Part shown: piece by piece, positions 16,640-64,000 of the stretch
Position numbering within the stretch: position 1 is the first letter of the stretch
Layout: each line of letters opens with the position of its first letter
NCBI GenBank assembly: GCA_048537945.1
Contig: CM108484.1
Span: 19,073,034 to 19,137,033, forward strand
Origin: Mnemiopsis leidyi
Lineage: Eukaryota
Direction: 5' to 3'
Length of the DNA stretch: 64,000 nt
The notes under the pieces: model-generated
The model's input: only the letters and a program-made list of their open reading frames with translations
What the model was told of the DNA's origin: nothing
Databases searched by the model: none
Position numbers and translations under genes: made by a program

Positions 16640-18379
16640 CTAATTAATGTTAATAAACTTTTTTCTAGCTACAAAAGGGTTCTCCCTGAGAAATTCATTA
16701 TGTCTCATTTTATTCTCAAAATAACTCCCACTTTCAATACGATTCAAGACCTCATCAGAAATATCCCAAAAGTTCCCACTACTGTAGAGTCCTAAGGATT
16801 TAGTTTTGCTCTTAAAAATTTCCAGATTAGATTTAAAAATATTTAGATTTAATGCAGTCTTCACCTCTATGGGTAGCTTATTCCAAAACAACATTACCCT
16901 ATCATTTAAGAATTTTCTTCGAAAACGATTAATCTTGGAAGCTTTACTCTTCCCTGGCTTACATATCAAATTTACTCCAGACCTACTAAAATTAAAGACT
17001 CCAGCTAACTGGGATAAGCCCTGGCTAGCTTTATAAACTTCAATCAGGTCACCTCTCGAACGTCTCTCAGCGAGAGTAGTCAGCTCTAGTATCTGCAGTC
17101 GCTCAGAGTAAGGAAGAAGGCCTACCCCTTCAATCATCCGCGTAAAGCGTCTCTGGACGCTCTCAATCCTCATTATTAAAGACCAATTTCCATGCTCTGC
17201 TGCAGGATTCCAAAGCTGAACACAATATTCGAGATGTGGCCTGATCAAGGTCTTGTACACCCTAAGCATTATCGATTTCTCTCTACTTATAAGGTTTCTA
17301 GATATCCAGCACAACATTTGATTGGCTTTACTAATACACGATTCAATCTGATCATTCCAAAGCAAGGTGCCAGAGGTAAGGACACCCAGATCTTTTTCTT
17401 GAACAGTTTCTTTTAATTTATTACCATGGAGCACATAATCAAAGTGTTTATTATCATTATGTTCTATATGAAGTACTTTACATTTATTAGTATTAAATTC
17501 AAGTAGCCACTTTCTCTCCCAATCTTCCAAAAGTTTTAAGTCATTGTCAACCACTGTTTTATCTGACAGATTTGCTATCAGTTTTAGGTCGTCAGCAAAA
17601 ATCTTTACAACACTCTTTAAACAATCTGGTAGATCATTTATAAATAAAATAAATAGTAAAGGTCCCAAAACTGAACCCTGTGGTATTCCTGATAAAATAT
17701 CTTTAAATGAAGAAAATTTACCCTGCAAAGAAACCCTAAAAGTTCTACCAATTAAGAAATCTTTGATAACATCTGTAGCTTTCCCATTAATTCCTAAGCA
17801 TTCAAGCTTTAACAACAATCTTCTATGTGGCACTCTATCAAAGGCTTTCTTAAAATCAAAAAATAGTATGTCAACTGGAATGCCCTGCTCTAAGAGGTCC
17901 ATTACACAGTCCATAGTTTCTAACAGATTGCTTAGACAAGACTTGCCTTTAACAAACCCATGTTGATGAGGGTTGATCTTGTCCTCAACAAATACCAGAA
18001 TTTCATCTCTAAGAATCTTTTCATAAACTTTACACAGAATACAAGTTAATGACACAGGTCTATAATTTAAAGGGTCAGTTTTAGACCCACTCTTAAATAG
18101 TGCAGTGAGATTAGCAGATTTCCATATTTTAGGTAATTCACCACTATCTGTGCATTTTCTAAATAATTTAACAACAGCTTCAACAAATGAAGAATCGTCA
18201 GCTAATGACTTTAAAAGTTTAGGGTGAATACCATCAGGACCAAAGCTTTTAAAACAATTTAAGCTCTCTAGTTGATGTTTTACTATGTCGAAAGTAATAT
18301 TTATGTCAGACAAAATATCAGGTTCAATGTCAGGTCTCTCAACACTTGGTAGGTTTTCTAAGCATATAAGCATATACAA
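16640..18379 (-). CDS. LINE ORF2 fragment (reverse transcriptase)
   Basis: NYRPVSL, FFDFKKAFDRVPH, GIPQGSVLGPLLF, FADD and the CR1 C-terminal tail. Confidence 0.7.
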   Translation of the reverse strand: MYMLICLENLPSVERPDIEPDILSDINITFDIVKHQLESLNCFKSFGPDGIHPKLLKSLADDSSFVEAVVKLFRKCTDSGELPKIWKSANLTALFKSGSKTDPLNYRPVSLTCILCKVYEKILRDEILVFVEDKINPHQHGFVKGKSCLSNLLETMDCVMDLLEQGIPVDILFFDFKKAFDRVPHRRLLLKLECLGINGKATDVIKDFLIGRTFRVSLQGKFSSFKDILSGIPQGSVLGPLLFILFINDLPDCLKSVVKIFADDLKLIANLSDKTVVDNDLKLLEDWERKWLLEFNTNKCKVLHIEHNDNKHFDYVLHGNKLKETVQEKDLGVLTSGTLLWNDQIESCISKANQMLCWISRNLISREKSIMLRVYKTLIRPHLEYCVQLWNPAAEHGNWSLIMRIESVQRRFTRMIEGVGLLPYSERLQILELTTLAERRSRGDLIEVYKASQGLSQLAGVFNFSRSGVNLICKPGKSKASKINRFRRKFLNDRVMLFWNKLPIEVKTALNLNIFKSNLEIFKSKTKSLGLYSSGNFWDISDEVLNRIESGSYFENKMRHNEFLRENPFVARKKFININ

Positions 18380-31129: not shown

Positions 31130-31375
31130 ACTCCATTTTTCTATGTAAGTGATCGGGGGTTCGATTCCCAGATCTGCGAATCCAAGAGGAGTTTGCTGAG
31201 GGCATTCGCCTATCCAATCTTCTTTGGTCGACTCAGCGGAATGACCGGGAAATCGTGACTGAGGGTTAAATGAGGAGGGTCTCCTTAAAAAATCTAGAAT
31301 ATTTTATCTTCCAGGAGACCCTTCGGTATAACTGTAAAAGCCTGGGTACAGGTTTAACTCTGTAACAAATGCAAA
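31130..31375 (+). mobile_element. tRNA-derived SINE copy in NRBP intron 3, slightly 5'-truncated, ending ...AAAGCCTGGGTACAGGTTTAAC(AACAAAT)
   Basis: GGTTCGATTCC box-B-like head. It is about 85% identical to the copies at 54611-54868 (-) and 42400-42580 (+). Confidence 0.7.
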
Positions 31376-40930: not shown

Positions 40931-42264
40931 ACAAGAAAAAGAACACACAAGTACCTTGAAAAAGAACACACTAAACCCATCTTCAACAGGCTTAAGATTA
41001 TTACTGTGCAAGCGTTATACAAATACCACAGTATTTCTGAAATCTTAAAAATCGTCGGATCTCTCAGTCCAAACCCCATTAAGAAAGGAGAGATATTTAT
41101 CCAAACGTGAAACAAATTATGTAATCTATTCATTCATGACTATCTATTCAAATCAAAAGGATATTTAGATAGGAACTGAAATTTATCTTTCTACTTCGTG
41201 GATATCTATAATCATGTATAGGAAATCATTGATTTAGCTGTAATTGCGGGGCTTGGTCAGCACAACTTCAATAATTTATAATTTTTCACAAGGGAAGATT
41301 GACTGAGAGCTTTTGAGCCTATCCTAATTTCTACAGCTTGACTAACAAAAAGAGACCTAGTAGCAAAGGGGGGTACACAATCCTCACGGTCTTTACTCTC
41401 CTATATCAGCCAGTTTTCTCAGTTTTGCATATAATTTCTCAACTAGAAAACCTTAAGTGACCGATTTTATTGCTATGACATTGATACCTGCTTTTCTCAA
41501 GCTAACAGGACCTCGTAATCTTTGGTAAAAAGTAGGATTATTAACGATTTATTTTAATTGATGCTTTTCATTTAAAAGGACCCCTTCCGTTTCATGATAT
41601 GAATTTAATTTGTTGTTTTCCTGAATTTGTTTTTTCCTACCAATGTTTGAGATTCCTTTCCAACTCTTGGATCTCATCAAGCACAATGTCTGGATCTCCT
41701 GTAAAAACTGCTGCACCCTCCAATAAACATTTCTGCCATGTTTTTCTGTGTCGTTTTTGTAATTGATTGGTCGCATCTGGCAATCGCTGTCACTCAAAAG
41801 AAACAATTTCAGATTCCAAGAATTCTGACATTCACAACTTCCAATGAAAGCATTATGAGGGTATCCATTGTCTCAACAGCTAGAGACTGTTTCCCTCATA
41901 CCCTATGTATGAAGTGTGTGAAAGTCATTTCTCAAATCAATATCAATTTTAAAATTAGATTTCACAGGCTCTTAATTCCCTGCTTTGTGAGATTGAAGAA
42001 CTTAACTTGTGTTCATAATCAAGCATATTGTCTTATATTGCCTTTCATCTGCTTTCATCTGCTTTCTTCTGTGAAAGATTATATTGTCTTATATTGCCTT
42101 TCATCTGCTTTCATCTGTGAAAGATTATATTGTCTTATATTGCCTTTCATCTGTGAAAGATTATTCAACTTGATCTGTGTTTAATTATTGAAGCTTTTCT
42201 TAGATTTCATCTGCTATATATGAAATTGATGTGATTTCTGAAACCTTATTTTTAGGATAGCAGA

Positions 42265-42399: not shown

Positions 42400-42580
42400 T
42401 ACTAGGAGTGCGCTGAAGGCATTTGCCTATCCAATCTTCTTCAGTCCACTCAGCCCAATGACCAGGAAACTGTGTTGGAGGGTTAAATGAGGAGGGTCTC
42501 CATCAAAAGATCAAAAATCTTCCAGGAGCCCCTTCAGTTTAACTATAAAAGCCTGGGTACAGGTGTGACAAAAAATTAAA
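42400..42580 (+). mobile_element. tRNA-derived SINE copy (5'-truncated) in intron 1 of the WW-domain gene
   Basis: GCATTTGCCTATCCAATCTTCTTCAGTCCACTCAGCCCAATGACCAGGAAACTGTG...AAAGCCTGGGTACAGGTGTGAC matches the copies at 31130 and 54611. Confidence 0.65.
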
Positions 42581-49496: not shown

Positions 49497-50741
49497 AGGA
49501 TTTGATCTGTTGAACATCGATATGAAAGGCGAGCTTAGAAGATCTGACTTCATGGTCGTGATCAGTCAAGTTATTAGATTCAACATCTTTCGTTAGCTCT
49601 GGTACTTAAACTTGGGATTGATGCTTATTGAACGACTTTTAAAACTACAGCTTGTAATGCTTGGTAAAGTGCTGCAATCGTTTGACTGAGTGTCGATCTT
49701 ATTGAAAGTTTGCAACTTTATAATCCCAAGGACATGGCTCGTACTGGTATCTAAGAGTGAGCTCTTAACATAGCTGCAGATAGTGACGTTATACCTTGAT
49801 TTTGTGCAGCAGTACAAAATTCAGAAATACTTACCATTATCTTTCCATGGAGTATAAATTCAAGTCATAGCTATTCTTTTAGAATAAGATCAAGATTTAT
49901 TTTGTGTCTAGTTTAGGTAGAAGTAAAATATAAATATTGTGAAGATCAGGACTTACTGCTGAATTGAGAGGTAGTTGTACAAACAAGCTCGTTTGTAATA
50001 CTGCCGCGTGTAAATTGTAGACGGTATATAACTGCACACTACTTAAGTTTTTTTGCAAGTTCGCTGTTTATAAAACTCCTGCAAACTGCATTTGTTATTA
50101 TCAACTGTAATTTTTTGTACAGTGTATGTACTGAACATTACAAATTTATTGATATGATAGATATCATAATATTGAGATTTGAGACTGTATTTTCGAGATT
50201 TTATATTATTTTGAAATTTCAAGTTATTATTTCCCGCTCCTTAATCAGATGCTTAGCATACATTTTAATCTGCTCAAGAAAGAGATATGCTATTTTATTC
50301 CTTGTTTAAGGTCCTGAAACTATAAAACCTAAAATCTCTGACAAGTTGCCACCATTTGTTAGAAAAAATAGAGAGTTTACTTTTCAAATAAGTTTATGTG
50401 GCACGATATTCAAAAGTACGAGATTTTATATTGTCGAAATTTGGTTTCAGTTATTTGGACTATGATATCAGTTTCAGTTTGTATATACTTAAGTTGTACT
50501 TGGAAAGTTTTATTTACTATGAGTTGCAATTTTCTGATTTGATATTTTCCTGCCAAAAGTTTTTATCGTTTGATTTGTGTCTTGCTATCAGTCAAGCTGA
50601 GTATCCTCGTTTACTATAGTTAAGAAATTTTTTGAAAGTTTTAGGGGCTATTCATTGCTGTATAACTCATTAAACTCCAATAATTTTGATAGTGTTAGCA
50701 AAATATGATAAAGCCAATTTAAGGCTAGTCAACACTCAACA

Positions 50742-52118
50742 ATGAAAGAGAAGCTACTGAATGTAAAGATCTCGTGTCAGTTAACATTCGATGTCCAATC
50801 GGACGATTTACACGATTCCCAAACAGACTTCTCAGACTTACAGACCTTCCTGTCCGATCTCCAAGATAACTTGGAACTGTTGGATCTGATCAAAGCAGGT
50901 GAAATTGTTGAAACAGACAACTTCGAGCTTACTCCTTCAGAAAATAGTCTTATCGCGATTTCGAGATTTTCAGACCGACAGTCTCCCTTTTACCTCTCAT
51001 GTGATACCTTGAAATCAATTTCTAACACACTTTCCCTTTACGATCTAAATGAGAAGTTATTAAAGGTGGGAGTTGGGTTTGAAAACCGGTCGGACACATT
51101 AAGAGAAACGGAAGTGTTTAATCCGAGTGTAACTTCGGTACCTGAAAGAAGCCAAAATAGTATTCTGGACATTAACATCAAGGAACAAAATTTATCAAAT
51201 TTTGGCTCTGTTATTGTCAATAAGGACACTGTAAATGATGATTCTGACATCATTGCTGGCAACAGTCCTACAGATCCAGTCAGCCACTTCGAGGGTTTTG
51301 TAGATAATAACAAATTAGATTCTATGACGTCCGTTAATCTCAATATTAATTCTTATCCTGAGTCAACCGATAACAAAAAGCATCCTTCTAATCATATCAC
51401 TAACATGAATGACACGAATAAACATAAAAATACCGGCCACCAAACCACTGACAGTGAAATTCAAAGGAACTTTGACAAACGGTCAGGAGCTTGTGCCGTG
51501 GATTCTCTTATCGCTGCTCATGTTTACAGTGACTTCCTTGATGCTCCCAGAGAACCTGACGACGACCTACCACCTCCTGAGTTGAACACAACCGCTACTC
51601 TCAAAGAGTACTTATTAAAAAAAGGATCTGACTCTGCACTGTCTTCTTTAAAGTCTGAATGTTTTACACATAAAACAGCACTTAATCCAGTATTTTCTTA
51701 CGAGCTTCATTTCGTTATTGGCTCTGTGAAGCACATCTATAAATGCTGTACTAGGTTTGCACGGAAATCGGATGCTAGGAGGCATGTTGAGTACAAGGCT
51801 TGTCAAGCACTAGGCATGTCTTGGAGGTCAGGTCAGCCGCTTTCTTCGAACGAGATCGACCAAACCCCAAGAACTTCAGATTTTATGGGAATTCTAAACA
51901 GATATTTGCAGAGTAGGGGCTCTGAACATTCATTAACATGGCATTTTGATACCTTAGTTATCCTGAAAAGCTGCCGAATAATGACCGCCACACTTTCTTT
52001 TAGGGATGGAGGAGAATTCCGCTTTTTTCATTCTAAAGAGTCGCCGAACCAGAGCGAGGCAAAAAGAAATGCTGCATACAGAGCTTGCAAATCACTCGGT
52101 CTGTGTCCTTTAAATTGA
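50742..52118 (+). CDS. Intronless 458-aa ORF: S/T/N/D-rich N-terminal region plus two C-terminal dsRNA-binding-motif-like segments
   Basis: NPVFSYELHFVIGSVKHIYKCCTRF...ARKSDARRHVEYKACQALG and DFMGILNRYLQ...FRDGGEFRFF...SEAKRNAAYRACKSLGL fit the dsRBM pattern (hydrophobic core, G.G.SKK.AK..AA..AL). No homologue was recognised otherwise. Confidence 0.4.
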   Translation: MKEKLLNVKISCQLTFDVQSDDLHDSQTDFSDLQTFLSDLQDNLELLDLIKAGEIVETDNFELTPSENSLIAISRFSDRQSPFYLSCDTLKSISNTLSLYDLNEKLLKVGVGFENRSDTLRETEVFNPSVTSVPERSQNSILDINIKEQNLSNFGSVIVNKDTVNDDSDIIAGNSPTDPVSHFEGFVDNNKLDSMTSVNLNINSYPESTDNKKHPSNHITNMNDTNKHKNTGHQTTDSEIQRNFDKRSGACAVDSLIAAHVYSDFLDAPREPDDDLPPPELNTTATLKEYLLKKGSDSALSSLKSECFTHKTALNPVFSYELHFVIGSVKHIYKCCTRFARKSDARRHVEYKACQALGMSWRSGQPLSSNEIDQTPRTSDFMGILNRYLQSRGSEHSLTWHFDTLVILKSCRIMTATLSFRDGGEFRFFHSKESPNQSEAKRNAAYRACKSLGLCPLN

Positions 52119-53272
52119 GCTTTAATGTAATGTCCTGCACCTTAAAGAAAAAAAAGAAGAATTAGTGATTATTCATCATGCTTTAATAACTTTATTTGTT
52201 TTAAAATAGAAATGCGTTTGAATAAATACCATGAAGATGGAAATAGCAGATGACTTTTTTCACTTTAAATAAATTGTGATTTTTAAAAAATCATTATAAA
52301 AACATTGCACATTCAATCAATCAGATGCTGCCATAAAAGTTTTCTCTTACGAATTTAAATTTATATTTTCATATTTAATGAAGATTGTATGTTATATTTT
52401 GAAATTATTCTAAGCTCAACAACTCGAGTTTGAAATAATGCAATTTTTTGTGATTTTTTGCGTTGAAAATTTAAATCAATTCGATTTTGAAATTGCGTCT
52501 TGGACATTCCTTAAGGGTGAATTGTAAAAATTTAGCTAGACCAACTGACTGTACAGGAACCTAAAGCACCCTAACGGGCATCAATTGCACCACTTATTTT
52601 TTTATTCTAACATGACGCATAATTTAATTTTTGAAAATCGCAAAAAGATAATTTTTCCGAGAATTTGGAAATTTTTGGAAATTTAAAACAATTTTTTTTT
52701 AAACAATTTTAATTTTAATTGATCAACAATTACACACCAAAACGCACACACACAAAAAGTAGAAATATCCTTGAGATATGAATGCTCAGTCACACTTAAA
52801 TAAAATTTGCATTATATGTGGGAAAGAAATTGGGATTTATAATCTGCATGTTTACACATATCATTTCAAAGAGAGAGAGTTAGTATGAATGAGCTCAAGT
52901 TATAGAAATTTAAGTGTTACAGTTACGTTACATGTGGAATAATTGATCTTGACGGCATGCCAAGTGACATAGGTGGTAGAAACTAGATGATTAAGATAGT
53001 CAGTCACCAGAAACTTCTGCCGTCCAGTGGGTAGCAGGAAACACGTATTGAATAGTTTTTGTACTTCTTATCTATCACCATAAATATTCATTGTACGCAC
53101 AAAATATAAAGTTGATAAGACTATTTAGAAGTGAGAGCTAATCTTAGGATTACAATACAGAAACACATATCATGGTTTTCTTAATGTGCTGTGGCAGTGA
53201 AATTTTAGATAAATTGGACTGATTCACGTATAAGCATAAGCTATTATTTATAATTTACATTCGGTTTATTTA

Positions 53273-54706
53273 TTAAGCTGTTAAATTTTCGGTGTATGGG
53301 TTATTTTTCATAGCTTCCAAATACAATTCTAATGAGTTATTGATCGGTATCCATGAGTTCACATCGCCAAATAGTTGAGCTTTACGTATAAAGTTTTTCA
53401 GTCGTGACATAAGGCAGCTTAATGTCGGAGCACAGGTTATTGAGTCACATTGTGAAGGCGAAGAACATAGATTATTCCAAAGTTTTACAGATTGATAGCA
53501 GAAATTGTTTTGATAGTGTGAAAGTTTAAGGTTAAGAGGAGTAATTCTTTTTCTTTTTTCTTCTTTTACGTTGTGAAGTTCCAGCAGTTCAAATAAATAC
53601 ACGGGTTTTTTAAATATCAGAAGTTTTATTAAATGAAGCAAGGTAGCGTAGTTATAAAGATTATAAACAGTCAAAATACGTAGCTCATTAAACTTATTTT
53701 TCGTATGTCCTTTCACAAATTTTGATTCACGTTTTATAGAAAAAAGGTTTCTAAGAGCCCTTTTTTGGAGCACAAATAATGGCTTAAGAGAATCATGCGT
53801 TTTGAAAGCTCCCCAGACTGCGATAGCATAAGATAATTGAGAGTTTATAATTGCATTATAGACGTTTATTTGTAAGTTCTTTGGTATGACCTTTCTCATA
53901 TTCCAGAGTTGAGAAATACTGTTACGTACTTTATTACTAACAGCTGTAATGTGTGTCTTCCAGCTTAGTCTACAATCTATTAGAACTCCAAGAAACTTGA
54001 TACAATTTACTCGTTCTAAGTCAGAGTTTCCAAACCTTGGGTTAAACTGTGTTTGCAGCTGAGCACTACGGGGCGATTGAAAGTGCATATACTTAGACTT
54101 CAAAACATTAATATGTAGAAAGTTTGCTTCTAAGTACTCTTTAAGTTTACTAAGGATGATGTCAGTCTTTTTTGTGGCATCAAGAACCGAATTTCCCTCT
54201 ACAAATAGGTTTGTGTCATCAGCAAATAAAATAAATGTTGCATTGTCAAGACAGTTGGACAAGCAGGTTGAAGATTCACACGTACATTGACTATGTACTA
54301 AGTCATTTACGTACAAGAGAAATAATAATGGTCCTAGGACAGATCCTTGTGGAACACCATCAAGTACATCAAGTAGATCAGATTCAGTGTCACCATGAAA
54401 CACAAGTTGCTTACGGTCAGTTAAATAACTTCGAAACAGTTCATGAACATTGCCTCTGATCCCATAGTGTTCAAGTTTGTCTAGCAATATACTGTGCTTT
54501 ACGGTGTCGAAAGCCTTACTGAAATCCAAGAAGATTCCATAAACTGTACGATTATCACTTAACCCTTTCAAGATTTGAGTAATAGCTGAGTTAAGGGCAT
54601 GGATTGTATTTGTATTTGTATTTGTTACACCTGTACCCAGGCTTTTACAGTTATACTGAAGGGGCTCCAGGAAGATTCTAGATCTTTTAACGGAGACCCT
54701 CCTCAT
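53273..54706 (-). CDS. LINE ORF2, C-terminal part: RT motifs and the CR1/L2-type C-terminal domain
   Basis: FLDFSKAFDTVKH, GVPQGSVLGPLLFLLYVNDL, LFADDTNLF, ...VLQKRALRNL...HTKNKFNELRILTVYNLY. Confidence 0.7.
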   Translation of the reverse strand: MRRVSVKRSRIFLEPLQYNCKSLGTGVTNTNTNTIHALNSAITQILKGLSDNRTVYGIFLDFSKAFDTVKHSILLDKLEHYGIRGNVHELFRSYLTDRKQLVFHGDTESDLLDVLDGVPQGSVLGPLLFLLYVNDLVHSQCTCESSTCLSNCLDNATFILFADDTNLFVEGNSVLDATKKTDIILSKLKEYLEANFLHINVLKSKYMHFQSPRSAQLQTQFNPRFGNSDLERVNCIKFLGVLIDCRLSWKTHITAVSNKVRNSISQLWNMRKVIPKNLQINVYNAIINSQLSYAIAVWGAFKTHDSLKPLFVLQKRALRNLFSIKRESKFVKGHTKNKFNELRILTVYNLYNYATLLHLIKLLIFKKPVYLFELLELHNVKEEKRKRITPLNLKLSHYQNNFCYQSVKLWNNLCSSPSQCDSITCAPTLSCLMSRLKNFIRKAQLFGDVNSWIPINNSLELYLEAMKNNPYTENLTA

Positions 54707-54868
54707 TTAACCCTCAATCACGGTTTCCCGGTCATTCGGCTGAGTCGACCGAAGAAGATTGCATAGGCAAATGCCCTTAGCGCACTCCTCTAGGATTGAC
54801 GGATCAGGGAATCGAACCACCGATCTTCTGCATAGAAAGTCGGGGTAGATACCACTACACCACCAACC
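54611..54868 (-). mobile_element. Full-length tRNA-derived SINE inserted in LINE ORF2 (tRNA head GGGTTGGTGGTGTAGTGGTATCTACCCCGAC...GGTTCGATTCCC; tail ...GGTACAGGTGTAAC(AAATAC)3)
   Basis: It splits FGFRKRHST | IHALNSAITQ of the RT. The SINE-internal GAGGGTTAAATGAGGAGG supplies a TAA then ATG that splits the ORF track at 54706 and 54707. Confidence 0.75.
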
Positions 54869-56554
54869 CATTGTGGAATGACGCTTGCGGAAACCAAACT
54901 GCTTCTTGTAAATAACATTGTGCTTTTCAAGGAACTTGTCTATTCTAGTATGTATGAGCTTTTCAAATATTTTAGAGAATACGGGTAATAAAGATATCGG
55001 TCTGTAGTTGACTATGTCATTTTTGTCACCGCTTTTGTAAAGTGGTACTACTCTAGCAATCTTTAATACATCTGGGAAGATTCCAGCATACATGCAGTTG
55101 TTAAATAGTACTGAGAAAGGTGCACTGAGATGATGTTTAAATATCTTCAGTATTCTTGGCGATATATCTGATGACTTGTTGGGATTTAGATCTTTTATAA
55201 TGCTATCGATTTCGTTGCTTTCAATTTCTTCGAAAAAAAGTGTTGACTCAACACGATTTTTCATAAATTTGGTATAGTCTGTAAAATGTGGACTAGATTT
55301 ATTTGCATTAAGGTTTTTTGCAAGATCAACAAAATGTGAATTTAATTTCTGCACAATTACTCTGCGGTCAGTTATGAGTTGTCGATTGTATTCAATGTAG
55401 TTCGGAAAAGACAGAGATTTCTTTTTATGTCTCATTTCATTAATAACTTTCCAACATTTCTTTAGATCTCCTTGGCATTTTTCAAAACGTTTTCTTAGAA
55501 AGCTTTCTTTTGCTTCCTTTTTAATCTTATCAAGTTTACTTCTATATAGCTTATAGTTAGCTTCTAATGCATTTAAATTGGGGTCACCTTTTTTCCTAGC
55601 TGAGATAACATTAACATGAAGTTTATTCTTAGTTTCACAGGCTTTTGCTATTCCTAAACTTATCCATGGTTTGTCAATAAAATTTCTTTTACTCGTTATG
55701 TCAACAGTGTCTAAAAAGCAGTCGCTATAGGCCTTTTTGAGTTCATTATAATAAGAATTAAATTGTTCGACACACTTTTCTTTAATTATACAGGGGTCAA
55801 GAACAATACTCTTAACAAACTTCGAATTTATTGACAAAATTGAATTTTCAAACTTTTCTATTGTTCTAGAATTTATATTGTGGATCTTAATCAAGTTAGT
55901 AGCAGCATCATTTGAATTAAGAATAGAGTCGGCTGATGTTGGAACACAAGCAAAAATGGGCATATGAGCAGAAGTAGACACGTTAAGAATACCAGAGGAT
56001 ACATTGTCAGATATTATGTTACACCAGATATGGTCAATAGCAGTATGTGATACACCTTTAAAGTGAGTTGGTTTATTAATTAGTGGATAAAAACCAGAGC
56101 AAATGAAAGTATTGATGTATTCCTGGACGTTTGAGTTATTTTCATAATTTAGAGTATTGAGATTGAAATCTCCAAGAATCACTGTTGGCTTGTCAGCAAC
56201 TGTATCAAGAAAAGATTGAAGTTCAGTAATACTTTCTCTTATTTTACTATTAGACGAATATATGTATACAACTATGACATTTACACTGCCTATATCTGTC
56301 AGAAAAGTACCACCTAGGCATTCGAAGTAATTGTTACGTAATGTTAGAGCTTTGGAAACTTTGAATTTTAAGTTGTTCCTATAATATAGAGCCAAACCCG
56401 ATCTCTTGGCTTTACCCTCGATGCTATAAAGGAATTCAGCATTGTACCCGTCAATCGTGAAGTCATGATCAATACCCTTTTTTAGATTGGTTTCATTGAA
56501 GCAAAGAAAGTCAAACTTTTTGTTAGTACTCTGTGTCTGATCAAGAAATTCCAC
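54707..56554 (-). CDS. LINE ORF2, N-terminal part: AP endonuclease plus the first half of RT, ending inside a SINE insertion
   Basis: The exo-endo-phosphatase fold is suggested by VILGDFNLN and TAIDHIWCN. RT region: PRILK, NYRPISLLPVFSKIFEKL, FGFRKRHST. The terminal ...TMGWWCSGIYPDF... is a translated SINE. Confidence 0.65.
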   Translation of the reverse strand: MEFLDQTQSTNKKFDFLCFNETNLKKGIDHDFTIDGYNAEFLYSIEGKAKRSGLALYYRNNLKFKVSKALTLRNNYFECLGGTFLTDIGSVNVIVVYIYSSNSKIRESITELQSFLDTVADKPTVILGDFNLNTLNYENNSNVQEYINTFICSGFYPLINKPTHFKGVSHTAIDHIWCNIISDNVSSGILNVSTSAHMPIFACVPTSADSILNSNDAATNLIKIHNINSRTIEKFENSILSINSKFVKSIVLDPCIIKEKCVEQFNSYYNELKKAYSDCFLDTVDITSKRNFIDKPWISLGIAKACETKNKLHVNVISARKKGDPNLNALEANYKLYRSKLDKIKKEAKESFLRKRFEKCQGDLKKCWKVINEMRHKKKSLSFPNYIEYNRQLITDRRVIVQKLNSHFVDLAKNLNANKSSPHFTDYTKFMKNRVESTLFFEEIESNEIDSIIKDLNPNKSSDISPRILKIFKHHLSAPFSVLFNNCMYAGIFPDVLKIARVVPLYKSGDKNDIVNYRPISLLPVFSKIFEKLIHTRIDKFLEKHNVIYKKQFGFRKRHSTMGWWCSGIYPDFLCRRSVVRFPDPSILEECAKGICLCNLLRSTQPNDRETVIEG

Positions 56555-56781
56555 AAAGTTTGACTGGAATCCGTCAATATTATTGAAAAGAAAAGAAGTA
56601 CCTTTAAATTCAACGTTCGAGACTAAAGAAGTTGTGTCATAATATCTACAGTTATCTAGAGTATTTCTGGAATATAGTAATGTTTCATTATATTCATCGA
56701 TCTCATCATCGAAGAATCGGTTCTTATCATTATCTTCGGAATCGTTAAACGGGTTGAAACTAACATCTTTAAATAGTTTAT

Positions 56782-57240
56782 TTAGAGTATGGGAGCCTTG
56801 CGAACCAGATTTTCGATTAAAAATATTGTACTAGGGAGGCAGTTTTTGCAGCAAAGGTTAGATATTTTCATACAATTATAGTGACTAGTTTGGTTACATA
56901 GCACACATTTAGAAGTTCTGTGTTTCTGAGGGCTTATATTTTTTTCACAACTTATGCACGTAGATTTGATGTTAGAAGAATGAGGGTTAGAAGGGCAAAT
57001 AGCAATATTGATGGGTAGTATTGATTCGATGCAGATAGGGCAAAACCAATCATTTTGTTTTTGTATTTCAAGAGCCACATCAGTTTCTATCTTGAGACAC
57101 TTCGCATGATAAATTTTTCCGTCACAATCACATATAAGTACTGTATCATGAGTGTAAATAGGTTTAAAGCAGAGCCCACACTTCTCTCTTTGGATTGATT
57201 TGTGTATTGTATTTATATATAAAATCCACAATCTGTCCAC
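56782..57240 (-). CDS. Cys-rich ORF with a PHD-type zinc finger (CGLCFKPI...CDCDGKIYHAKC...WFCPIC) between ORF1 and ORF2 of the LINE
   Basis: C4HC3 spacing. A further CxxC...C...C cluster follows. Confidence 0.5.
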   Translation of the reverse strand: MDRLWILYINTIHKSIQREKCGLCFKPIYTHDTVLICDCDGKIYHAKCLKIETDVALEIQKQNDWFCPICIESILPINIAICPSNPHSSNIKSTCISCEKNISPQKHRTSKCVLCNQTSHYNCMKISNLCCKNCLPSTIFLIENLVRKAPIL

Positions 57241-57863
57241 ACCTTACGTAGTCAAAAGTTTATAGAACACTCGGATAAAAAGTTTGTAGAACTATTAAAC
57301 AGTAGATACTTTGCTCATAAAGACCGTTGAACATACTGTGGTTAAAAACAAGTTCCTAAATGTAAATACTAATTGTACATTAAATACGAGTAGAGTAATC
57401 ATCATCACAGGAAACAGCTGGGATACCGTGTAAAATTTAAGCTGGCTATTTTATAAAAAAAAAAGAAACATACCATTTTCCAGGTTCACAGAGGTATGCG
57501 GTTGAATGATGATATATCTTTGAAAACAAACAACAACTGACAATTTGAGAAAATACACATCTAATTTATACACTTCGACCGTGTATGTCTAAGTATGATA
57601 CTGAATACATACACGGTGCGACTTATCAAGTATAACATCTAGAGATAACGTATATAAGCAAGATATCAAAATTCGTGTAATTATGGCGTGGATGCAGTAA
57701 TTAATAAATAACCAAGATTGGGATTAATGTGTTACTGAGCAATTAACTTCCAGAGCATATACAGAACGAAAATTATAAACAACACAAGCCAAAAAACTCT
57801 AGGCTCGTCAAAGAGCGAACTATCCACAATCATCACAGAAACTTTCGAACTAGATTTTTGTAG

Positions 57864-58697
57864 TCAGTTAACACGACAATCAGGGAACTTGTTAATAATC
57901 TGCCTAACAAAATCTTGCCAAACGTGTATACCGTTAAAATACTCGCCAGACGCGAGCTTCACGGCGAAACCTGAAGTTGGTGACTGATATGTCACCCACT
58001 TAGGTTTAAGTCCTACGTTACGAATCGGGCCACTCACATAAGACTCATCATTCTCATCAGACTTTAAAAACTTGAAAATACCAGATCTCAAGTCAGCATA
58101 ATGCTGAGTCAACGATTGATAAACTTTAACTTGTCGAGGTGCCGACGCAGCTTGATCAAAATTACGGTAATTCCTAATAACAGAGTCCTTCTTGTTAATT
58201 TTACTAAAACGTACAGTAACAGAGGGCGGAATAGTTTTCCCCCTGATAATACGGTTGTCACGGGAATTACGGTGTATCGCCGAAAAATCATTTGGGGAAA
58301 CGTCAACACCACTAACGCTAAGAGTCTGAGCCACTTTCTGTGACAGGGTAGCCTCAGTTTCAGACTCGGGTTTATCAAGTCCAACTACAGTTATTGTGTC
58401 GCGTCTTGAATATTGTTCCGTCTTAACAACGGAGAGATGTAGATCGTCAACTGATTCAACAACGTTCCTATTACGCACAAGCATTTCCTCCCTTAGCTGG
58501 GCATGTTCATTTCTAAGTTCCTTCACCTGGCAGTACAAAACACCCATAAAATCGAACATAGACTTTTCGAAGTCGGAAGATGGTTGCGGACCAGTTTTAA
58601 ACCTATCATAAAGAAGGTCAAGAGTAGGAGTCAAGGACGAAATACGCTGACTCTGATCATTGAGCCTAGCAGCAGCACCACGAGTGTTAGCCGGCAT
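57864..58697 (-). CDS. LINE ORF1 protein (N-terminal coiled coil plus RRM-like domain: EQYSRRDTITVVGLDKPESE ... HRNSRDNRIIRGKTIPPSVTVRFS)
   Basis: The YSRR(N/D).I.(I/V).G(I/L).E motif is typical of LINE ORF1p RRM-type domains. Confidence 0.6.
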   Translation of the reverse strand: MPANTRGAAARLNDQSQRISSLTPTLDLLYDRFKTGPQPSSDFEKSMFDFMGVLYCQVKELRNEHAQLREEMLVRNRNVVESVDDLHLSVVKTEQYSRRDTITVVGLDKPESETEATLSQKVAQTLSVSGVDVSPNDFSAIHRNSRDNRIIRGKTIPPSVTVRFSKINKKDSVIRNYRNFDQAASAPRQVKVYQSLTQHYADLRSGIFKFLKSDENDESYVSGPIRNVGLKPKWVTYQSPTSGFAVKLASGEYFNGIHVWQDFVRQIINKFPDCRVN

Positions 58698-58847
58698 GTT
58701 GAAAGCGGTGTGGAGCAGATTGTAAGAGTTACGTCAAGATGTAGATTTTCACGTTAAGTTATACACTGTGAGATGTATAGCTATAAGCTAAAGGTAAACG
58801 CTTATCACCACTAGTTGAACAAACGTATTAAATGGTTAAAGATAAGA

Positions 58848-59232
58848 TACATTGCATGAATAAAACTCAGCCGTTTCTAATTGCATCATGCTGAAAATTT
58901 GCACGAATTTCATTTATACCTTTGTGAAGCAGCTGTGAAAATTTCACGAAAAACTAATAAATGTAACTGACTTAATGGCACCTGTCCAACGTTGCCAAGT
59001 CCCAAAAATTTATTTTTTTATGTTATCTAACTTTGAAAATTTGCACACGTTACTGTGAACTGTCAAGCACCTTGAAACTTTGCACACACGTAGAAGACTT
59101 CGATAAAAAAATTTTGATGCTATGAAAAATCTGTTTCCAAGGAAAGGGGAAAGATTTATGGACACTTGAAATAAAAGTAGCAATTTATCTGTCAAATTTC
59201 AACTTGAAGACAAAAAATTGTTAAAATCGTGT
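58848..59232 (-). repeat. ~385-bp nonautonomous repeat R, a copy lacking the terminal ~70-bp LINE-type tail. It is in the same orientation as, and immediately 5' of, the full-length LINE
   Basis: About 85% identical to 63567-63935 in reverse orientation. Confidence 0.7.
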
Positions 59233-61077
59233 TACATTCATTTTTTCCATCTCTAACACTTTTTTGCCGAAGGCAAAAAAGTAAAGTAGATGGTTTAAAG
59301 TGGTCGGATTTTGGAGGTGGTAGGTGGGTAGGTAGGTAGATGGACGTGTCCAGTGTCCGGTGTCTGGTGTCCCACCGCAATTTAACACATAGTGCAGTGC
59401 GCGCCACCGTTACCATGTCGACGTGACAAATTGCCTCCGCAAAGTTATTCTATGCCGAATATATATTTGTAAGTTTATCGCCGTTGTGCGGCGTACGTAT
59501 CACTATCAGAGTATTACTCCGAAGTATTATGTCAATTTTATATTCAATTCTAATGCTTATCTGACTTATGGTTTTAAGTTTATGCGCAACAGTGGCCAAT
59601 TATTTTATTGTTAAGTTTGCGATATCACGATGATATCAATAGATTATGTGACACAATATGACGACACGCAAATCTAACTGTGTAGCGTTGTCCTAATAAA
59701 CACATCGCAATGGGCCGATTGAATCAGCTATCGTTATTACTTCACGAATCGCATACCTCATGAATCGCGCTTGTCTGCACCTGATTTCACTTTCTTCATC
59801 AATATGAGTTATATTTGACTAGATGTAATGCGAGAGCCGCGTATCAGCCAAAGCAACATTCAAGCTAATGACACTGAAACTTCCTACAAAATTTAAGCAA
59901 AAAATAGACCTAGTCAAACTATTTGACTGCACCGTCAAAATTATCCACATCCGTTGTTTTGAATAGCTAAAATTTCACGGCCGGCTTTAGGTTTTCGAAA
60001 CCGAAAACTTATATAAATAAACAGCAGCCATTATCATCAGACAAGTTGCAATAAAAATGTTTCAGTTTCACGGCAAATATTTTCACTGTAGCTTCCATGG
60101 TATTCCATCAGCAGTCTTTGCGGCAGGATTTATTTTTACAACATATCTGCTGCCCAAATTCTATGCTTCTACTTCTAGCACTAGCAGAGGGCAAATCGAA
60201 GAAGCCTCTATACAATTTTAGAGATGGAAATCTAGCGTCCGCCTGAGACCTAACTAAGCGGGAACAATTCTTGTTTAATCTGGCATTCGACAAACACCCC
60301 TACAGAAAAGTGCCTCTAATTGTACCGACGGTACCTTAAATTTATGGTCTAAATTAAATTTTAAGTCGGACAAAAGTTGCTCAAGAAATTTTCGAAAAAT
60401 TCGAAACCTTAATTCAGGATTTTGAGGTCAAGCTTAATTGAGATCAGTATGATTTTTCAATTTAGCTTCATACACTAAATTTAATCTACACCATTTAAAA
60501 TGTACCTTCAACTCCAACAGAAAATAATTGAATTCAGGTCATCGTTGGGCTAAATTTTCAAATTATTTTTCTCAAATAATTAATTTAGGATTAAAGATTA
60601 AAATAGAAATCTTTAACTCCTAATAAAAAATTCTAAATTAGGGTCTTGATCGAGGCCTGATTAACTTTTTGATGCTAGAATTTTCTATGCGTAGATATTA
60701 ATGTTATTCATGATATTCATCTAAATAGATTCATTCTGACTGTTTCTGTTTAAATCAGTGATTAAGTTATGATATCACATTCACAAAATTGTTTGCAATG
60801 CAACAATTTGATTAGAAATATTGGTTCAATACAGCTAGCCATATTGATAATCGACAAACTGCCAAGTTTCCAGCAATCATTTTGAAATTATGTTTCTCTT
60901 TGCATATAACTGTATTTATCGATGTCACACTAACAGTGACCATGTATTGTAGATTAACGCACTTAAAATCGCTTACTCCAATTCGACTTACATCAATTTC
61001 AAAACTATCATTGATATTTGCCTTTATTACCAAATCGCTTCTAGGCCATTCTATTTGCGAATATTTTTGAAATTTTT

Positions 61078-61800
61078 CGCCTGCGGCGGGCATTTACTGA
61101 ATCATAAGATTTTAAATCATGCCCTTGAACCTCAGTTTTGTATCCATTGAAAGACTTCCTATGAGATTGGCCTTTATTACCAAATTGCTTCTAGGTCTAG
61201 GTCTGTGTCCAAATCCTCAAATTTTTCGCCTGCGGCAAACATGTTGAAATATAGATATGTGCAGAGGAACTTTATGCAAAAACTTTATGCTGAAAGCACG
61301 TTAGTTTCAAATTTTTGTGAATTCGGGGACAAAATATCTAAATTAAAAAAATATTTTCGGTACCTTAAATTGGGTAAATTTTAACTTATTTGCACCCATG
61401 TCGACAAAAGTCAATTAAACTTAAGTTCAAAAGAATTCTTATCGACTTTACTTTCACTTGTTATTGTTTGATCGTACATCTTGTTGCAGTTGTTGCAAGG
61501 CAATTATGTATACATTTCATGATGCAGATGTGAAATCCATTCTGCGGCCTGAGGCAGTTAAATCCTTTATGCTTTCAGCATAAAGTTTTTGCATAAAGTT
61601 CCTCTGCACATATCTATATTTCAACATGTTTGCCGCAGGCGAAAAATTTGAGGATTTGGACACAGACCTAGACCTAGAAGCAATTTGGTAATAAAGGCCA
61701 ATCTCATAGGAAGTCTTTCAATGGATACAAAACTGAGGTTCAAGGGCATGATTTAAAATCTTATGATTCAGTAAATGCCCGCCGCAGGCGAAAAATTTCA
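61078..61800. repeat. Near-perfect palindrome: 225-bp arms (61078-61302 and 61558-61800) around a ~255-bp spacer
   Basis: CGCCTGCGGCGGGCATTTACTGAATCATAAGATTTTAAATCATGCCCTTGAACC... and its exact reverse complement. Arm identity is about 99%. Confidence 0.85.
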
Positions 61801-61899
61801 AAAATATTCGCAGATTAAGATTAAGTGTGTAGCGTGTGTAGGTTTGGTATCGATTTAACCGCTCTCGTTTACTGCTCTGTTTAACGCCTATAGTACCTT

Positions 61900-62853
61900 G
61901 TGTATATACACTCGCACCGTGTATACAAGTGTTATCAGGGAACCATGCCTATGCCCCTTAATAACAAGCATGTGCATTTTCTTGATGAGACCTTTTGTGA
62001 ACCTTTCAATGCAAAATTTGTGGAGCAGATCTACCGAGCAACGGACAGTATTTGTGCGGAAATGCGAGAATGTATCAATGTCGATGGAAATGACCTAGTG
62101 CGGGCGGCAAACATGATGAAGAAGACTATCACTCGTGATAAGCTTATCAGTTGGGTGGAGACACTAAATTGTATTTTGGATGGTCATGTTGTTCCTCTTC
62201 TGGAAAAGGCAGTTGAAATGCAATCCGAGAATCAGAAACTAAAAGATGAGAAAATCAAGGATCAAGAAACGATTATAAGTCTACAAAATAAACTAGTCGA
62301 GAAGAAGGATGAAGAAATTTCCTCGATGAAGTCCACTGTCCAAACGGAGCTGAAAAGCTATTCTTCAGCGTTGTCTCAAAGCTGTAAAGCCGCCCTAGCC
62401 CCTAGAAAAATTGAAGCTGCAGTGAAGAGAGTGTCTGACAAGGAGGACAGGAGCAGAAATGTTATCATTTACGGCGTGAAAGAAGAAAGTGGAGAAGACC
62501 TTAATCAGTGTGTCGACAGTATTTTGACTGAAATTGAGGAGAAACCACGTATAATAGACTGTTGCCGAATCGGAAACGTGAAGCAGGATATGTGTCGCCC
62601 GATAAAGTTTACCGTGTCAAATTATGACCATGTGAGACAGATCTTGCAGAAATGTAAAACACTGCGCAACAAAGAGGGATATAAATCAGTATATCTGAGT
62701 CCTGATCACACCGTCGATGAACGTAAAGCTTTCAGAAAGCTGCTTGATGAGCTTAGACAGAAAAGGATTTCTGAACCGGAATTTGTTCATATATTGAGGA
62801 ACAATAAGATAACCAGTGTTCCGAAGGACAGTGCCACAGCCAACACTGGATAG
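61900..62853 (+). CDS. LINE ORF1-like protein (coiled coil plus RRM-like: DKEDRSRNVIIYGVKEESGE ... RIGNVKQDMCRPIKFTVSNYDHVRQIL), with no ORF2 following
   Basis: The RSRN.II.G..E, RIG, RP.K.T motif order is as in ORF1p. Only about 700 bp separate it from a LINE-type 3' tail repeat. Confidence 0.5.
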   Translation: MYIHSHRVYKCYQGTMPMPLNNKHVHFLDETFCEPFNAKFVEQIYRATDSICAEMRECINVDGNDLVRAANMMKKTITRDKLISWVETLNCILDGHVVPLLEKAVEMQSENQKLKDEKIKDQETIISLQNKLVEKKDEEISSMKSTVQTELKSYSSALSQSCKAALAPRKIEAAVKRVSDKEDRSRNVIIYGVKEESGEDLNQCVDSILTEIEEKPRIIDCCRIGNVKQDMCRPIKFTVSNYDHVRQILQKCKTLRNKEGYKSVYLSPDHTVDERKAFRKLLDELRQKRISEPEFVHILRNNKITSVPKDSATANTG

Positions 62854-63227
62854 TTCTGAACATAATTGAGTTTCAATTTTCACGTGACCGGATCACCGCA
62901 CGTTTTGTTTTTGTTTATTTTAAGGGGCCAAGTTTATACAGGTACAGACTTTCTAGTCAGTACAATCACTGTGTTTTGGTATCCCATCATTTTATACAGA
63001 CGGATGCAACTTTATTCGGATATTTATTTATGATCATGTATAATTGCTGTTCTGTATAATTTGAAAAGATTTCGATAAAAAAATACACCATTAAGTTTGA
63101 TAAAGGAGCGTGCGCATGGACGGACGGACGGACGGATGGACACAATTTGAGCTAATATTCCAAAATACTCCGATTTACGCTGTCGATCGCCAACCCTTGT
63201 TTTGTACTTTTTGTGCACGTGCACAAA

Positions 63228-63300
63228 ACGTATCAAAAAAATCTTGCCATTGGGCCCTTCGGGCCCAAATGGCAAGATACGGGAAAAAATCTTTTGCAAG
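63228..63300. repeat. 16-bp-stem perfect hairpin (TCTTGCCATTGGGCCC TTC GGGCCCAAATGGCAAGA)
   Basis: The stem and loop are visible directly in the sequence. Confidence 0.8.
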
Positions 63301-63566
63301 GGTCCCCCCGTGTGTTCAAAATCGAGAATTTTGAAGAAAAACTCATTAGTCACAAAGATTGTTATGACACACTTTCTTAGACTATTTTTAAGCATAGAAT
63401 TCAAATATGACCATGAAAATTGTTTAAAATTTTCAGAAAAGGCAAAACAAATAAAAATATACATAAATCACACAAAGTGTTGTTATGGTAAACTTAAAAA
63501 AGTGTTCGATTTACAGCCCAAAAAAAGTGACCTTATATCTGGCATTTAGACAACTCAAGGGTGGCT

Positions 63567-64000
63567 CTAACAATTTTTGTCTGCAAGTTGAAATTTGTCA
63601 GAAAAATTGCTACTTATATTTCAAGTGTCTGTAAATCTTTCCCCATTCCTAGGAAACAGACTTTCCATAGCATCATAATTTTTCTACCGAGGTCTTCTAC
63701 CTGTGTGCAAAGTTTCAAGGTGCTTGACAGTTCTCAGTAGGGTGTGCAAATTTTCAAAGGTAGTTAACATAAAAAATAAATTTTTGGGACTAGGCAACTT
63801 TGGACGGGTGCCATTAAGTCAAATTTTATTAGTTTTTCGTGAATTTTTTACAGCTGCTTTACAAAGGTATCAATAAAATTCGTGCAAATTTTCAACACGA
63901 TTCAATGAGAAACGGCTGATTTTTATTCATGCAATGTAAATTTCCAAAAATTTCCAAATTCTCGGAATTGATGGTGCAATTGATGCCCGTTAGGGTGCTT
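63567..64000 (+). repeat. Nonautonomous repeat R, full copy with LINE-type 3' tail (...AAATTTCCAAAAATTTCCAAATTCTCGGAATTGATGGTGCAATTGATGCCCGTTAGGGTGCTT), running off the window end
   Basis: The last ~75 bp match the 3' terminus of the LINE at 52562-52640 (reverse complement). The body matches 58848-59232. Confidence 0.7.

Follow-up and report, generated by a model that had tools for sequence, protein, structure and literature searches.

Which mobile elements make up the end of this stretch of Mnemiopsis leidyi DNA, and does any of them depend on the LINE that lies among them? In the 64,000-nucleotide stretch analyzed here (hereafter the window), a long LINE, designated LINE-X, adjoins one copy of a repeat, R, and an ORF1-like gene lies upstream of a second R copy in the opposite orientation. 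The initial annotation assigned these sequences to LINE-family insertions linked by a common 3' tail. We found that the region represents three unrelated mobile-element events located side by side. The explanation we favor, at a probability of about 0.78, is that LINE-X is nested in R and has decayed, and that the ORF1-like gene belongs to a separate ORF1-only retroposon, which would be mobilized in trans.

Repeat R and the insertion of LINE-X

R is indeed present twice in opposite orientations, as had been noticed before. The part of copy 1 that adjoins the 5' end of LINE-X (58848-59223, minus strand) aligned at 89% identity with the other strand of 63568-63938 (376 aligned columns, E 1e-140), which belongs to copy 2 (63568-64000, plus strand), a copy that has no LINE interruption and runs off the window end. 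This proximal part of copy 1 stops precisely where the uninterrupted copy runs on into the supposed tail, and the corresponding sequence is found on the other side of LINE-X: 63937-63967 matched the reverse complement of 52655-52685 at 31/31 positions, and 63972-64000 matched that of 52564-52592 at 29/29 positions. Between these blocks lie 4 nt in copy 2 and 62 nt (52593-52654) in copy 1, with a deletion of ~58 nt at 63968-63971 of copy 2 relative to both copy 1 and a diverged R-like copy at another locus, L008. The latter copy (L008:344-582), which is partial and 67% identical, aligned with LINE-excised R as a single HSP across the junction (E 2e-12), covered the 62-nt segment and continued to ~52510; its body and "tail" are contiguous, and the nearest LINE fragment at this locus is 9.4 kb away. 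The distal part of copy 1 was accordingly placed at 52510-52685 (minus strand), downstream of the LINE insertion point in the minus-strand reading, with an approximate outer limit of ~52510. R is a non-coding interspersed repeat of at least ~560 bp, with two diverged, oppositely oriented copies in the window and the partial one in L008. Metagenome scans with R 21-26-mers gave no match.

LINE-X itself (52686-58847, minus strand, 6.2 kb) was delimited by Pfam domains and by termini common to other copies. It is an APE-type non-LTR retrotransposon, as Exo_endo_phos and RVT_1 domains were detected both in the window copy (APE and RT region, 53273-56554) and in the intact ORF2 of L011. On the same minus strand are its ORF1 (57864-58697), the start of ORF2 with a PHD finger (56782-57240, Pfam PHD), and a 3'UTR followed by terminal AAAATTGTTT repeats (52686-52718; TRF reports the repeat at 52680-52718). 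The 5' end at 58847 was reproduced at L011:8857 and L012:8855, where homology starts at 58847-58849 and the upstream flanks are unrelated. The 3' end, ...AAAATTGTTTA or ...GATCAATTAAAATTAAAATTGTTTA at window ~52700-52686, is common to L008, L011 and L014, and flanks diverge beyond it. Both flanks of the window copy are collinear with the uninterrupted R copy, 58848 corresponding to 63938 and 52685 to 63937. The apparent LINE tail is R sequence beyond the insertion point of LINE-X.

These boundaries bear on the proposal that R is a non-autonomous element borrowing the RT of LINE-X via a shared ~75-bp tail, and that minus-strand R and the LINE are tandem LINE-family insertions. In favor of this proposal, the end of plus-strand R matches DNA just past the LINE 3'UTR without a mismatch over 31 and 29 nt. 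However, with the LINE limits set by L008, L011 and L014, the stretch in question (52564-52685) is not part of the element: it was found in none of these three independent copies that reach the 3' end, all of which terminate at ...AAAATTGTTTA. Besides, minus-strand R stops exactly where the stretch starts in the other copy, and the diverged L008 copy, with no adjoining LINE, contains body and "tail" in one piece. The idea of tandem insertions fails likewise, since the 58847 end recurs in L011 and L012 with unrelated flanks and the two R pieces are collinear. Dependence of R on LINE-X through a shared tail is therefore already contradicted, and we regard it as very improbable. A second possibility is that R represents the 5'UTR of LINE-X and 52564-52685 its true 3' end, in which case plus-strand R would derive from a LINE by an internal deletion that brought the 5'UTR and the tail together. 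Although R directly adjoins the LINE-X 5' end and the plus copy joins R to the stretch without a gap, homology to L011 and L012 begins at 58847-58849 with unrelated sequence upstream, and the stretch is missing from the 3' end in L008, L011 and L014, which makes this view barely credible.

These data show a nested insertion: LINE-X entered the minus-strand R copy by target-primed reverse transcription, at the point in R that corresponds to 63938/63939, and this event split R copy 1 into 58848-59223 and ~52510-52685. As in other nested TE insertions, with a LINE inside an older repeat, the LINE flanks are collinear with an uninterrupted repeat and the termini are reproduced in independent copies; nothing is unusual here, and the only duplication visible at the insertion junctions is TA (2 bp).

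The window copy of LINE-X has decayed since its insertion, through acquisition of a tRNA-derived SINE in the RT domain, loss of ~480 nt and a frameshift. The SINE (54604-54869, minus strand) combines a head resembling an A box and a B box, TGGTGTAGTGG ... GGTTCGATTCC, with an (ACAAAT)n tail; it splits the RT reading frame between FGFRKRHST and IHALNSAI and is missing from L011 and L013-L015. Further copies of this SINE are present in the window at 31138-31358 and 42404-42572. Comparison with L011 placed the ~480-nt deletion where intact relatives encode an AlkB-like ORF, and no ORF was found at 57241-57863 of the window copy. Thus, the earlier description of a full-length LINE holds insofar as a long LINE with ORF1, PHD, APE and RT is present at 52686-58847, but the copy is damaged. 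Members of the LINE-X ORF1 family were found on 6-7 kb contigs.

One addition would be compatible with nesting of LINE-X in R, namely that R is itself a LINE-X-dependent retroposon in the opposite orientation. The R end at 59223 (63568 on the other strand), ...GACAAAAA(A)TTGTTA, resembles the LINE-X terminal AAAATTGTTTA, and the motif AAAATTGTTDA occurs 4 times on both window strands vs 0.8 expected, with one occurrence exactly at the boundary of R and another at the end of the LINE. On the other hand, only ~10 AT-rich nt are involved (rough chance probability ~0.004), no further similarity to the LINE-X 3'UTR was seen at word size 7, and there are only two R copies. We consider this addition possible but doubtful.

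The ORF1-only retroposon

The second element in the region is located at 61825-63083 on the plus strand. This 1,259-bp unit consists of a 120-nt 5'UTR, a CDS (61945-62853) and a 230-nt 3'UTR ending GATTTCGATAAAAAAA. Nine close copies with 87-99% identity (L001-L007, L020, L021) showed the same boundaries and unrelated flanks. The 3' end, ...GATTTCGATA(A)n, lies 485 bp before R. A composite unit of ORF1, ~700 bp and a LINE tail, as proposed for this element, was not observed: homology among copies ends at 63083, short of R by the same 485 bp. Among 14 loci examined, a short A-run terminates the element in all 12 in which the 3' end is reached; its length was 4-9 nt in the 7 close copies whose contig reaches the 3' end and 4-20 nt across all subfamilies. 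Target-site duplications were not consistent: some copies had one that did not exceed 3-4 nt (AAT in L001, TAGT in L021), and none were evident in others. The element at 61825-63083 is an independent, sharply bounded, multicopy retroposon without RT or endonuclease: it contains a single ORF, and none of the 13 other copies examined had an ORF2 inside.

A separate foldback structure (61053-61815), which belongs neither to R nor to the ORF unit, ends 9 nt before the retroposon. It is composed of 246-nt inverted arms (61053-61298 and 61570-61815; 100% complementary in the repeat search, 99.6% by blastn) and a 271-nt loop, and has relatives at L002:15877-16126 (74% identity).

Could such units come from an autonomous LINE with both ORF1 and ORF2, whose copies lost the 3' part through premature polyadenylation? 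Two observations point in this direction. In L002, a degenerate APE and RT of another family follows the unit on the same strand, with its start ~1 kb beyond the A-run, and one M. leidyi gene model (P0084) joins an ORF1-like N-terminus to an RT. However, the RTs that adjoin ORF1-like genes differ in family between L002 and P0084, with only 33% identity, and L002 was the exception, as 13 of 14 loci had no same-strand ORF2 nearby; no RT was found within 6-10 kb of the members in L001, L009, L010 and L019-L021. Retention of the 3' module (described below) between subfamilies with only 41% protein identity, purifying selection on the ORF and the typical size of contigs with family members (mostly 1.1-2 kb) also argue against truncation, which we consider unlikely.

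The 302-aa protein

The CDS starts at the ATG at 61945 and encodes 302 aa plus stop. The 317-aa ORF previously delineated at 61900-62853 is real, but its GTG start at 61900 stems only from use of the bacterial genetic code, and the true product is the shorter protein. It was 100% identical to M. leidyi KAL5258021.1, and at least nine NCBI-annotated M. leidyi proteins fall in its 90% cluster, spread over contigs of six sizes (14.6-20.9 Mb). The family is very large, with 11,107 cluster representatives at E ≤ 1e-3, and the 150 best are almost all ~300 aa, from contigs that mostly measure 1.1-2 kb, in contrast to the 6-7 kb of those with LINE-X ORF1 relatives. The protein is predicted to have the LINE-1 ORF1p fold, i.e., a coiled coil, an RRM and a C-terminal domain (CTD): an AlphaFold2 model with pLDDT 80 gave human LINE-1 ORF1p as the top 12 Foldseek matches in PDB (E 8e-6 to 2.4e-3). 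This match, together with the lack of an ORF2 within the element at 14 loci, agrees with the initial annotation of an ORF1p-like gene without ORF2. At the sequence level, no Transposase_22 match was found in Pfam at E ≤ 0.1, and a PDB sequence search with the protein did not retrieve L1 ORF1p.

Both the 302-aa protein and LINE-X ORF1 show the L1 ORF1p fold. Yet alignment of the two, the ORF at 61900-62853 and LINE-X ORF1 at 57864-58697, which had been suggested as a check, detected no sequence similarity (BLASTP E 2.5); profile comparison gave an hhalign probability of 1.4% and no HMM match, and the nucleotide sequence of the element had no match to LINE-X. Derivation of the ORF1-only element from LINE-X was rejected on the basis of this lack of ORF1 or UTR homology.

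The ORF is under purifying selection, with a dN/dS of 0.23 in comparison with L001. This value, the intact ORFs and the gene status that the M. leidyi assembly annotation gives them would also fit a host gene family, i.e., a domesticated ORF1 similar to mammalian L1TD1 that expanded by duplication. Such an origin is improbable, since copies that are 98-99% identical share the same ends while their flanks are unrelated, the 3' A-run varies in length, introns are absent and the subfamily structure is typical of TEs. In addition, one copy, in L012, was inserted within the APE domain of another LINE.

A candidate partner LINE and related systems

The retroposon ends with a 3' terminal module plus an A7 run (63039-63083, plus strand), CATGTATAATTGCTGTTCTGTATAATTTGAAAAGATTTCGATAAAAAAA. 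The module motif is unique in the window, where 0.01 chance matches are expected. In the L009/L019 subfamily, with a protein of only ~41% identity, this ~45-nt module showed 90% conservation. The 3' end of LINE-Y, an RT-encoding LINE (L012 11332-11382, minus strand), also has the module, at 82-87% conservation, as seen in a single copy that comes from an ENA assembly and not from the M. leidyi reference; this LINE-Y copy ends in an A10 tail and shows a target-site duplication of 4 nt, ATTT. Tail sharing does occur for the ORF1-only element, but with LINE-Y rather than with LINE-X as proposed, and the sequence of the module suggests LINE-Y as a candidate partner LINE. By analogy with HAL1/L1 and HeT-A/TART, the ORF1p-like protein may package the RNA of its own element, and a LINE that ends in poly(A) and has the same ~45-nt module, such as LINE-Y, may supply in trans the ORF2 protein that reverse-transcribes this RNA.

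HAL1 and HeT-A are the closest known analogues of the ORF1-only element. HAL1 ("half-L1") of mammals is a non-autonomous non-LTR element that encodes an ORF1p-type protein only and needs LINE ORF2p (PMC5753468). The ctenophore element resembles it in coding for an ORF1p-type protein only, in its fold match to L1 ORF1p and in its A-rich 3' end, but it has no sequence-level relation to L1 ORF1/Transposase_22, and its candidate partner is a poly(A) LINE. In the absence of a Transposase_22 domain and of a PDB sequence match to L1 ORF1p, its assignment to HAL1 proper, which is L1-derived, was rejected. No full-length L1 families were observed in a survey of ctenophores (PMC5203782). HeT-A encodes Gag only, has no pol and must take RT from another element (PMC2173066). 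Dependence of one element on another is thus common to the HeT-A/TART pair of Drosophila telomeres and the system proposed here; HeT-A, however, is telomere-targeted, whereas the ctenophore element has a dispersed distribution that extends to sites within other TEs. HeT-A Gag is not known to be a coiled-coil/RRM/CTD protein. A further parallel is provided by SINE/LINE pairs with shared 3' tails, in which the LINE partners are of the stringent type: the ORF1-only element and LINE-Y similarly share the ~45-nt module followed by an A-run, but the non-autonomous member in the ctenophore is protein-coding and presumably depends on pol II.

Repeat R and the neighboring LINE

The non-coding repeat R was confirmed as an inverted pair in the window (G+C content 37%), with copy 1 on the minus strand (58848–59223) and copy 2 on the plus strand (63568–63938) showing 89% identity over 376 columns (E = 1e-140). 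Copy 2 runs on to the end of the window at 64000, and its continuation is the opposite strand of two exact blocks, 52655–52685 (31/31) and 52564–52592 (29/29), which are separated by 4 nt in copy 2 versus 62 nt at 52593–52654. The initial annotation placed this shared sequence in the 3′ UTR of LINE-X, a 6.2-kb LINE on the minus strand (52686–58847), whose reverse transcriptase (RT) R would use by tail recognition. We found that when LINE-X was excised, 59223→58848 followed by 52685→52564 was collinear with the uninterrupted R copy at 63568–64000; the dinucleotide TA (63937–63938) was the sole sequence found at both sides of the insertion. Moreover, a diverged R-like copy from a public assembly (L008:344–582) aligned with the LINE-excised R in one HSP (251 columns, 67% identity, E = 2e-12), which spans the insertion point, includes the 62-nt segment and reaches ~52510 of the window. 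Because this HSP holds the 62-nt segment, copy 2 has a ~58-nt deletion. These alignments show an ordinary nested insertion of LINE-X into an R copy, which had been misread as tail sharing. They also contradict the suggested tandem insertion of LINE-family elements, as well as R being the LINE-X 5′ UTR accompanied by an internally deleted derivative.

Independent copies of the LINE-X family, taken from public assemblies via LINE-X proteins, were used to place the ends of the element. At the 5′ side, homology to the window begins at 58847 in locus L011 and 58849 in L012, and all three copies start TCTTATCTTTAACCAT... with unrelated DNA upstream in each. The 3′ end, ...GATCAATTAAAATTAAAATTGTTTA, is common to L008, L011, L014 and the window, and beyond it all four diverge mutually; the window copy has one additional AAAAAAAATTGTTT ahead of 52685, and TRF places the terminal repeat at 52680–52718. 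The 52564–52685 stretch was absent from every LINE-X copy compared, including L008, L011 and L014, and is therefore not LINE sequence. Thus, the match between R and the supposed tail exists, but its membership in the LINE-X 3′ UTR was not borne out. Had a transposable element library been built from this locus on the basis of a shared tail, neither LINE-X nor R would have been delimited correctly.

R contained no ORF, and terminal inverted repeats convincing by eye, as would be expected of a MITE, were not found. No RNA or tRNA match to R was obtained with Rfam (gathering thresholds, 50000–64000) or ARAGORN (whole window), and JGI metagenome contigs contained no exact match to either a 21-mer of the supposed tail or a 26-mer of the R body. 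At the other boundary of R (59214–59224 and 63568–63579, minus strand), the sequence reads AAAAA(A)TTGTTA. R taken in the opposite sense ends there with ...GACAAAAA(A)TTGTTA, which resembles the LINE-X terminal AAAATTGTTTA; the 11-mer class of this motif has 4 matches in the window versus 0.8 expected. R read in the opposite sense might then be a LINE-X-dependent retroposon, a weak lead that we consider unlikely. In pairwise comparison, 59094–59112 within R copy 1 also matched the 3′ end of the ORF1-only element described below (63066–63084) at 18 of 19 positions (AAGACTTCGATAAAAAAAT, E = 0.004), probably by chance, since the other R copy is diverged there. The R-like copy in L008 has arrays of a ~21-nt tandem unit (GTGAGGTCGGTAAGTCGGGGA) at one side and the reverse complement of the array at the other (L008:1–340, 640–760).

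LINE-X in the window is not intact. Its minus-strand components are a 277-aa ORF1 (57864–58697), a PHD-finger ORF (56782–57240) and an ORF2 with apurinic endonuclease (APE) and RT domains in two pieces (53273–56554). The RT domain carries a 266-nt tRNA-derived SINE (54604–54869, minus strand) with box A/B-like motifs and an (ACAAAT)n tail, which is missing from L011 and L013–L015 and has further copies at 31138–31358 and 42404–42572. ARAGORN, run on the whole window, detected no copy of this evident SINE and Rfam missed the one at 54604–54869, so negative results from these tools say little. In addition, compared with L011 the window copy has lost ~480 nt between 57493 and 57733. In intact relatives the PHD finger forms the N-terminus of an ORF2 of 1,224–1,231 aa, whereas here it and the endonuclease are in different reading frames.

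A bounded ORF1-only element

Nine close copies of the plus-strand ORF1-like unit (L001–L007, L020 and L021, 87–99% identical) showed homology from 61825 (GTGTGTAGCGTGTGTAGG...) to 63083, with unrelated flanks on either side. Seven of them reach the 3′ end, the contigs of L006 and L007 ending short of 63083, and all seven terminate with ...TTTGAAAAGATTTCGATA and an A-run of 4–9 nt. Given these common boundaries, the element is 1,259 bp long and ends 485 bp short of R, and hence the unit previously proposed (an ORF1-like gene, ~700 bp and a LINE tail) does not hold. Distant subfamilies in L009, L010, L012 and L019, whose proteins are ~40% identical, also have a one-ORF layout, with A-runs of 8–20 nt. 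No APE or RT was detectable within 6–10 kb of the element in L001, L009, L010 and L019–L021, and in L012 a family member, oppositely oriented, sits within the endonuclease domain of a different LINE, a clear insertion.

Two cases could suggest that the element descends from a parental ORF1–ORF2 arrangement. In L002, degenerate pieces of APE and RT that belong to another family start ~1 kb downstream of the unit on the same strand, and in the M. leidyi gene model P0084 an ORF1-like part is fused to an RT. This origin appears quite unlikely, as the RT families beside ORF1-like genes are mutually inconsistent; the two RTs are only 33% identical, and we therefore read both cases as adjacency within nests of transposable elements. 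Taken together, the ORF1-only element is a genuine and abundant family of non-autonomous retroposons, and probably an active one. The nonautonomous nature assigned to it earlier was thus retained, in the form of a multicopy element with its own boundaries and without ORF2, and its derivation from the neighboring LINE and that LINE's tail was not.

A near-perfect inverted repeat with 246-nt arms (61053–61298 and 61570–61815, spacer 271 nt) ends 9 nt ahead of the element. Its arms hold a ~150-nt sub-repeat (60992–61045 resembles 61142–61195), and relatives with 74% identity occur at L002:15877–16126. This structure may represent either a foldback element or an artifact of assembly; it is not part of the ORF1-only element, whose other copies have unrelated upstream DNA.

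The ORF1-like protein

The ORF at 61945–62853 encodes a 302-aa protein 100% identical to M. leidyi KAL5258021.1, and close paralogs are annotated on contigs of 6 different lengths (14.6–20.9 Mb). The true start is the ATG at 61945 (MPMPL...), as in homologs, and the GTG at 61900 is an artifact of the bacterial code. No significant Pfam match was found, Transposase_22 included. However, the ORF1p-like assignment of this gene was supported by its predicted fold: an AlphaFold2 model from a 32-sequence alignment (mean pLDDT 80) comprises a long helix and, after it, an alpha/beta domain, and all of the top 12 Foldseek matches in PDB were human LINE-1 ORF1p (E = 8e-6 to 2.4e-3), comprising the trimer (2yko, 2ykp and 2ykq), the RRM-CTD (2ldy) and the RRM (2w7a). 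The same fold is predicted for the ORF1 of LINE-X (pLDDT 87, top match 2yko, E = 6e-8). When the two proteins were aligned as the initial annotation had advised, they proved unalignable (BLASTP E = 2.5, profile–profile probability 1.4%, no HMM hit); judged by sequence, the 302-aa gene is not derived from LINE-X.

Comparison of the window copy with L001 gave a dN/dS of 0.23 (dS 0.30). A profile search with the 302-aa family recovered 11,107 representative clusters at E ≤ 1e-3, and the best 150 were nearly all ~300 aa. Contigs bearing members of this family were typically 1.1–2 kb, those of the LINE-X ORF1 family 6–7 kb. One LINE-X ORF1 homolog (P0440, 52% identical) was deposited under a Planctomycetes metagenome-assembled genome; it is presumably DNA of a ctenophore or other animal mis-binned into a bacterial genome.

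Tail sharing with a second LINE

The final ~45 nt of the ORF1-only element form a 3′ module, CATGTATAATT..CTGTAnnnTTTGAAAAGwTTTnnATAAAA(A)n, in which the window and L009/L019 subfamilies show 90% conservation, the remaining 3′ UTR being unalignable. The same module, with 82–87% identity, ends LINE-Y, a minus-strand LINE of L012 that encodes an RT. LINE-Y consists of the N-terminal half of APE (16325→15702), the C-terminal half of APE with RT (14349→11792), and a 3′ UTR followed by the module and A10 (at 11332), and is flanked by a 4-nt duplication, ATTT. LINE-Y is known from one copy, in which ORF2 is preceded by 311 nt of non-coding sequence and by no ORF1. The module motif occurs only once in the window, and neither the module nor the 302-aa protein family was found when GTDB genome contigs and IMG/VR were scanned. 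The tail-sharing signature sought initially links the ORF1-only element with the poly(A)-type LINE-Y, not with LINE-X.

A broader reading is a split LINE across ctenophore genomes, in which an ORF1p-type chaperone and ORF2 would reside on two mutually dependent retroposons sharing the ~45-nt module and poly(A). We regard this as quite unlikely; if true, an early-branching animal would harbor a dispersed counterpart to the symbiosis of HeT-A and TART. Two distant ORF1-only subfamilies have another short terminus (GGGTTTTCAA...A8–9; L010:~9290–9310 and L012:15690–15717), so that there may be a second type of tail, possibly with a LINE partner of its own.

Comparison with known elements

ORF1-only non-LTR elements are already known as a kind. 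It has been reported that mammalian HAL1 encodes only ORF1p and arose from L1 repeatedly (PMC5753468), and that Drosophila HeT-A, which lacks pol, must borrow RT (PMC2173066). By analogy, the ctenophore element may work in a similar way. It is not HAL1, however: homology to L1 is absent at the sequence level, and in M. leidyi full-length L1 families were reported missing by a survey (PMC5203782). Our literature search found no published description of the ctenophore element, which adds a case from outside mammals and insects, has a candidate LINE partner that can be identified, and should be useful for the question of how cis-preference and trans-mobilization evolve. In the M. leidyi assembly, members of this large and conserved family appear as genes for a "hypothetical protein", and ctenophore gene sets and marine metagenome protein catalogs are therefore inflated.

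Other features

Further RT fragments are present at 5391–6458 (+), 8551–8976 (+), 16790–18331 (−) and 40937–41056 (+). They belong to other LINE families (27–45% identical to LINE-X family ORF2), and none of the four sites has an ORF1-like gene of the 302-aa family beside it. Just past the R fragment, a 458-aa ORF (50742–52118, +) showed a weak match to a Dicer dimerization/dsRBD-like domain (Pfam E = 2.5e-4, below cutoff) and may be a host gene.

Intact LINE-X relatives carry a third ORF of 192–193 aa between ORF1 and ORF2 (L011:10226–10807, L013:2892–3470, L014:1519–2097 and L015:1539–2117), lost from the window copy (equivalent region 57241–57863). It encodes an AlkB-type 2OG-Fe(II) dioxygenase domain (PF13532, 70 bits versus a cutoff of 31). 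Among solved structures it is closest to human ALKBH3 and ALKBH2 (E = 1e-7), and the HxD, H and R..TFR motifs are retained. In our literature search, AlkB was found in orchid Ty3/Gypsy elements and in plant RNA viruses but in no non-LTR retrotransposon, and this ORF may be the most novel item near the locus.
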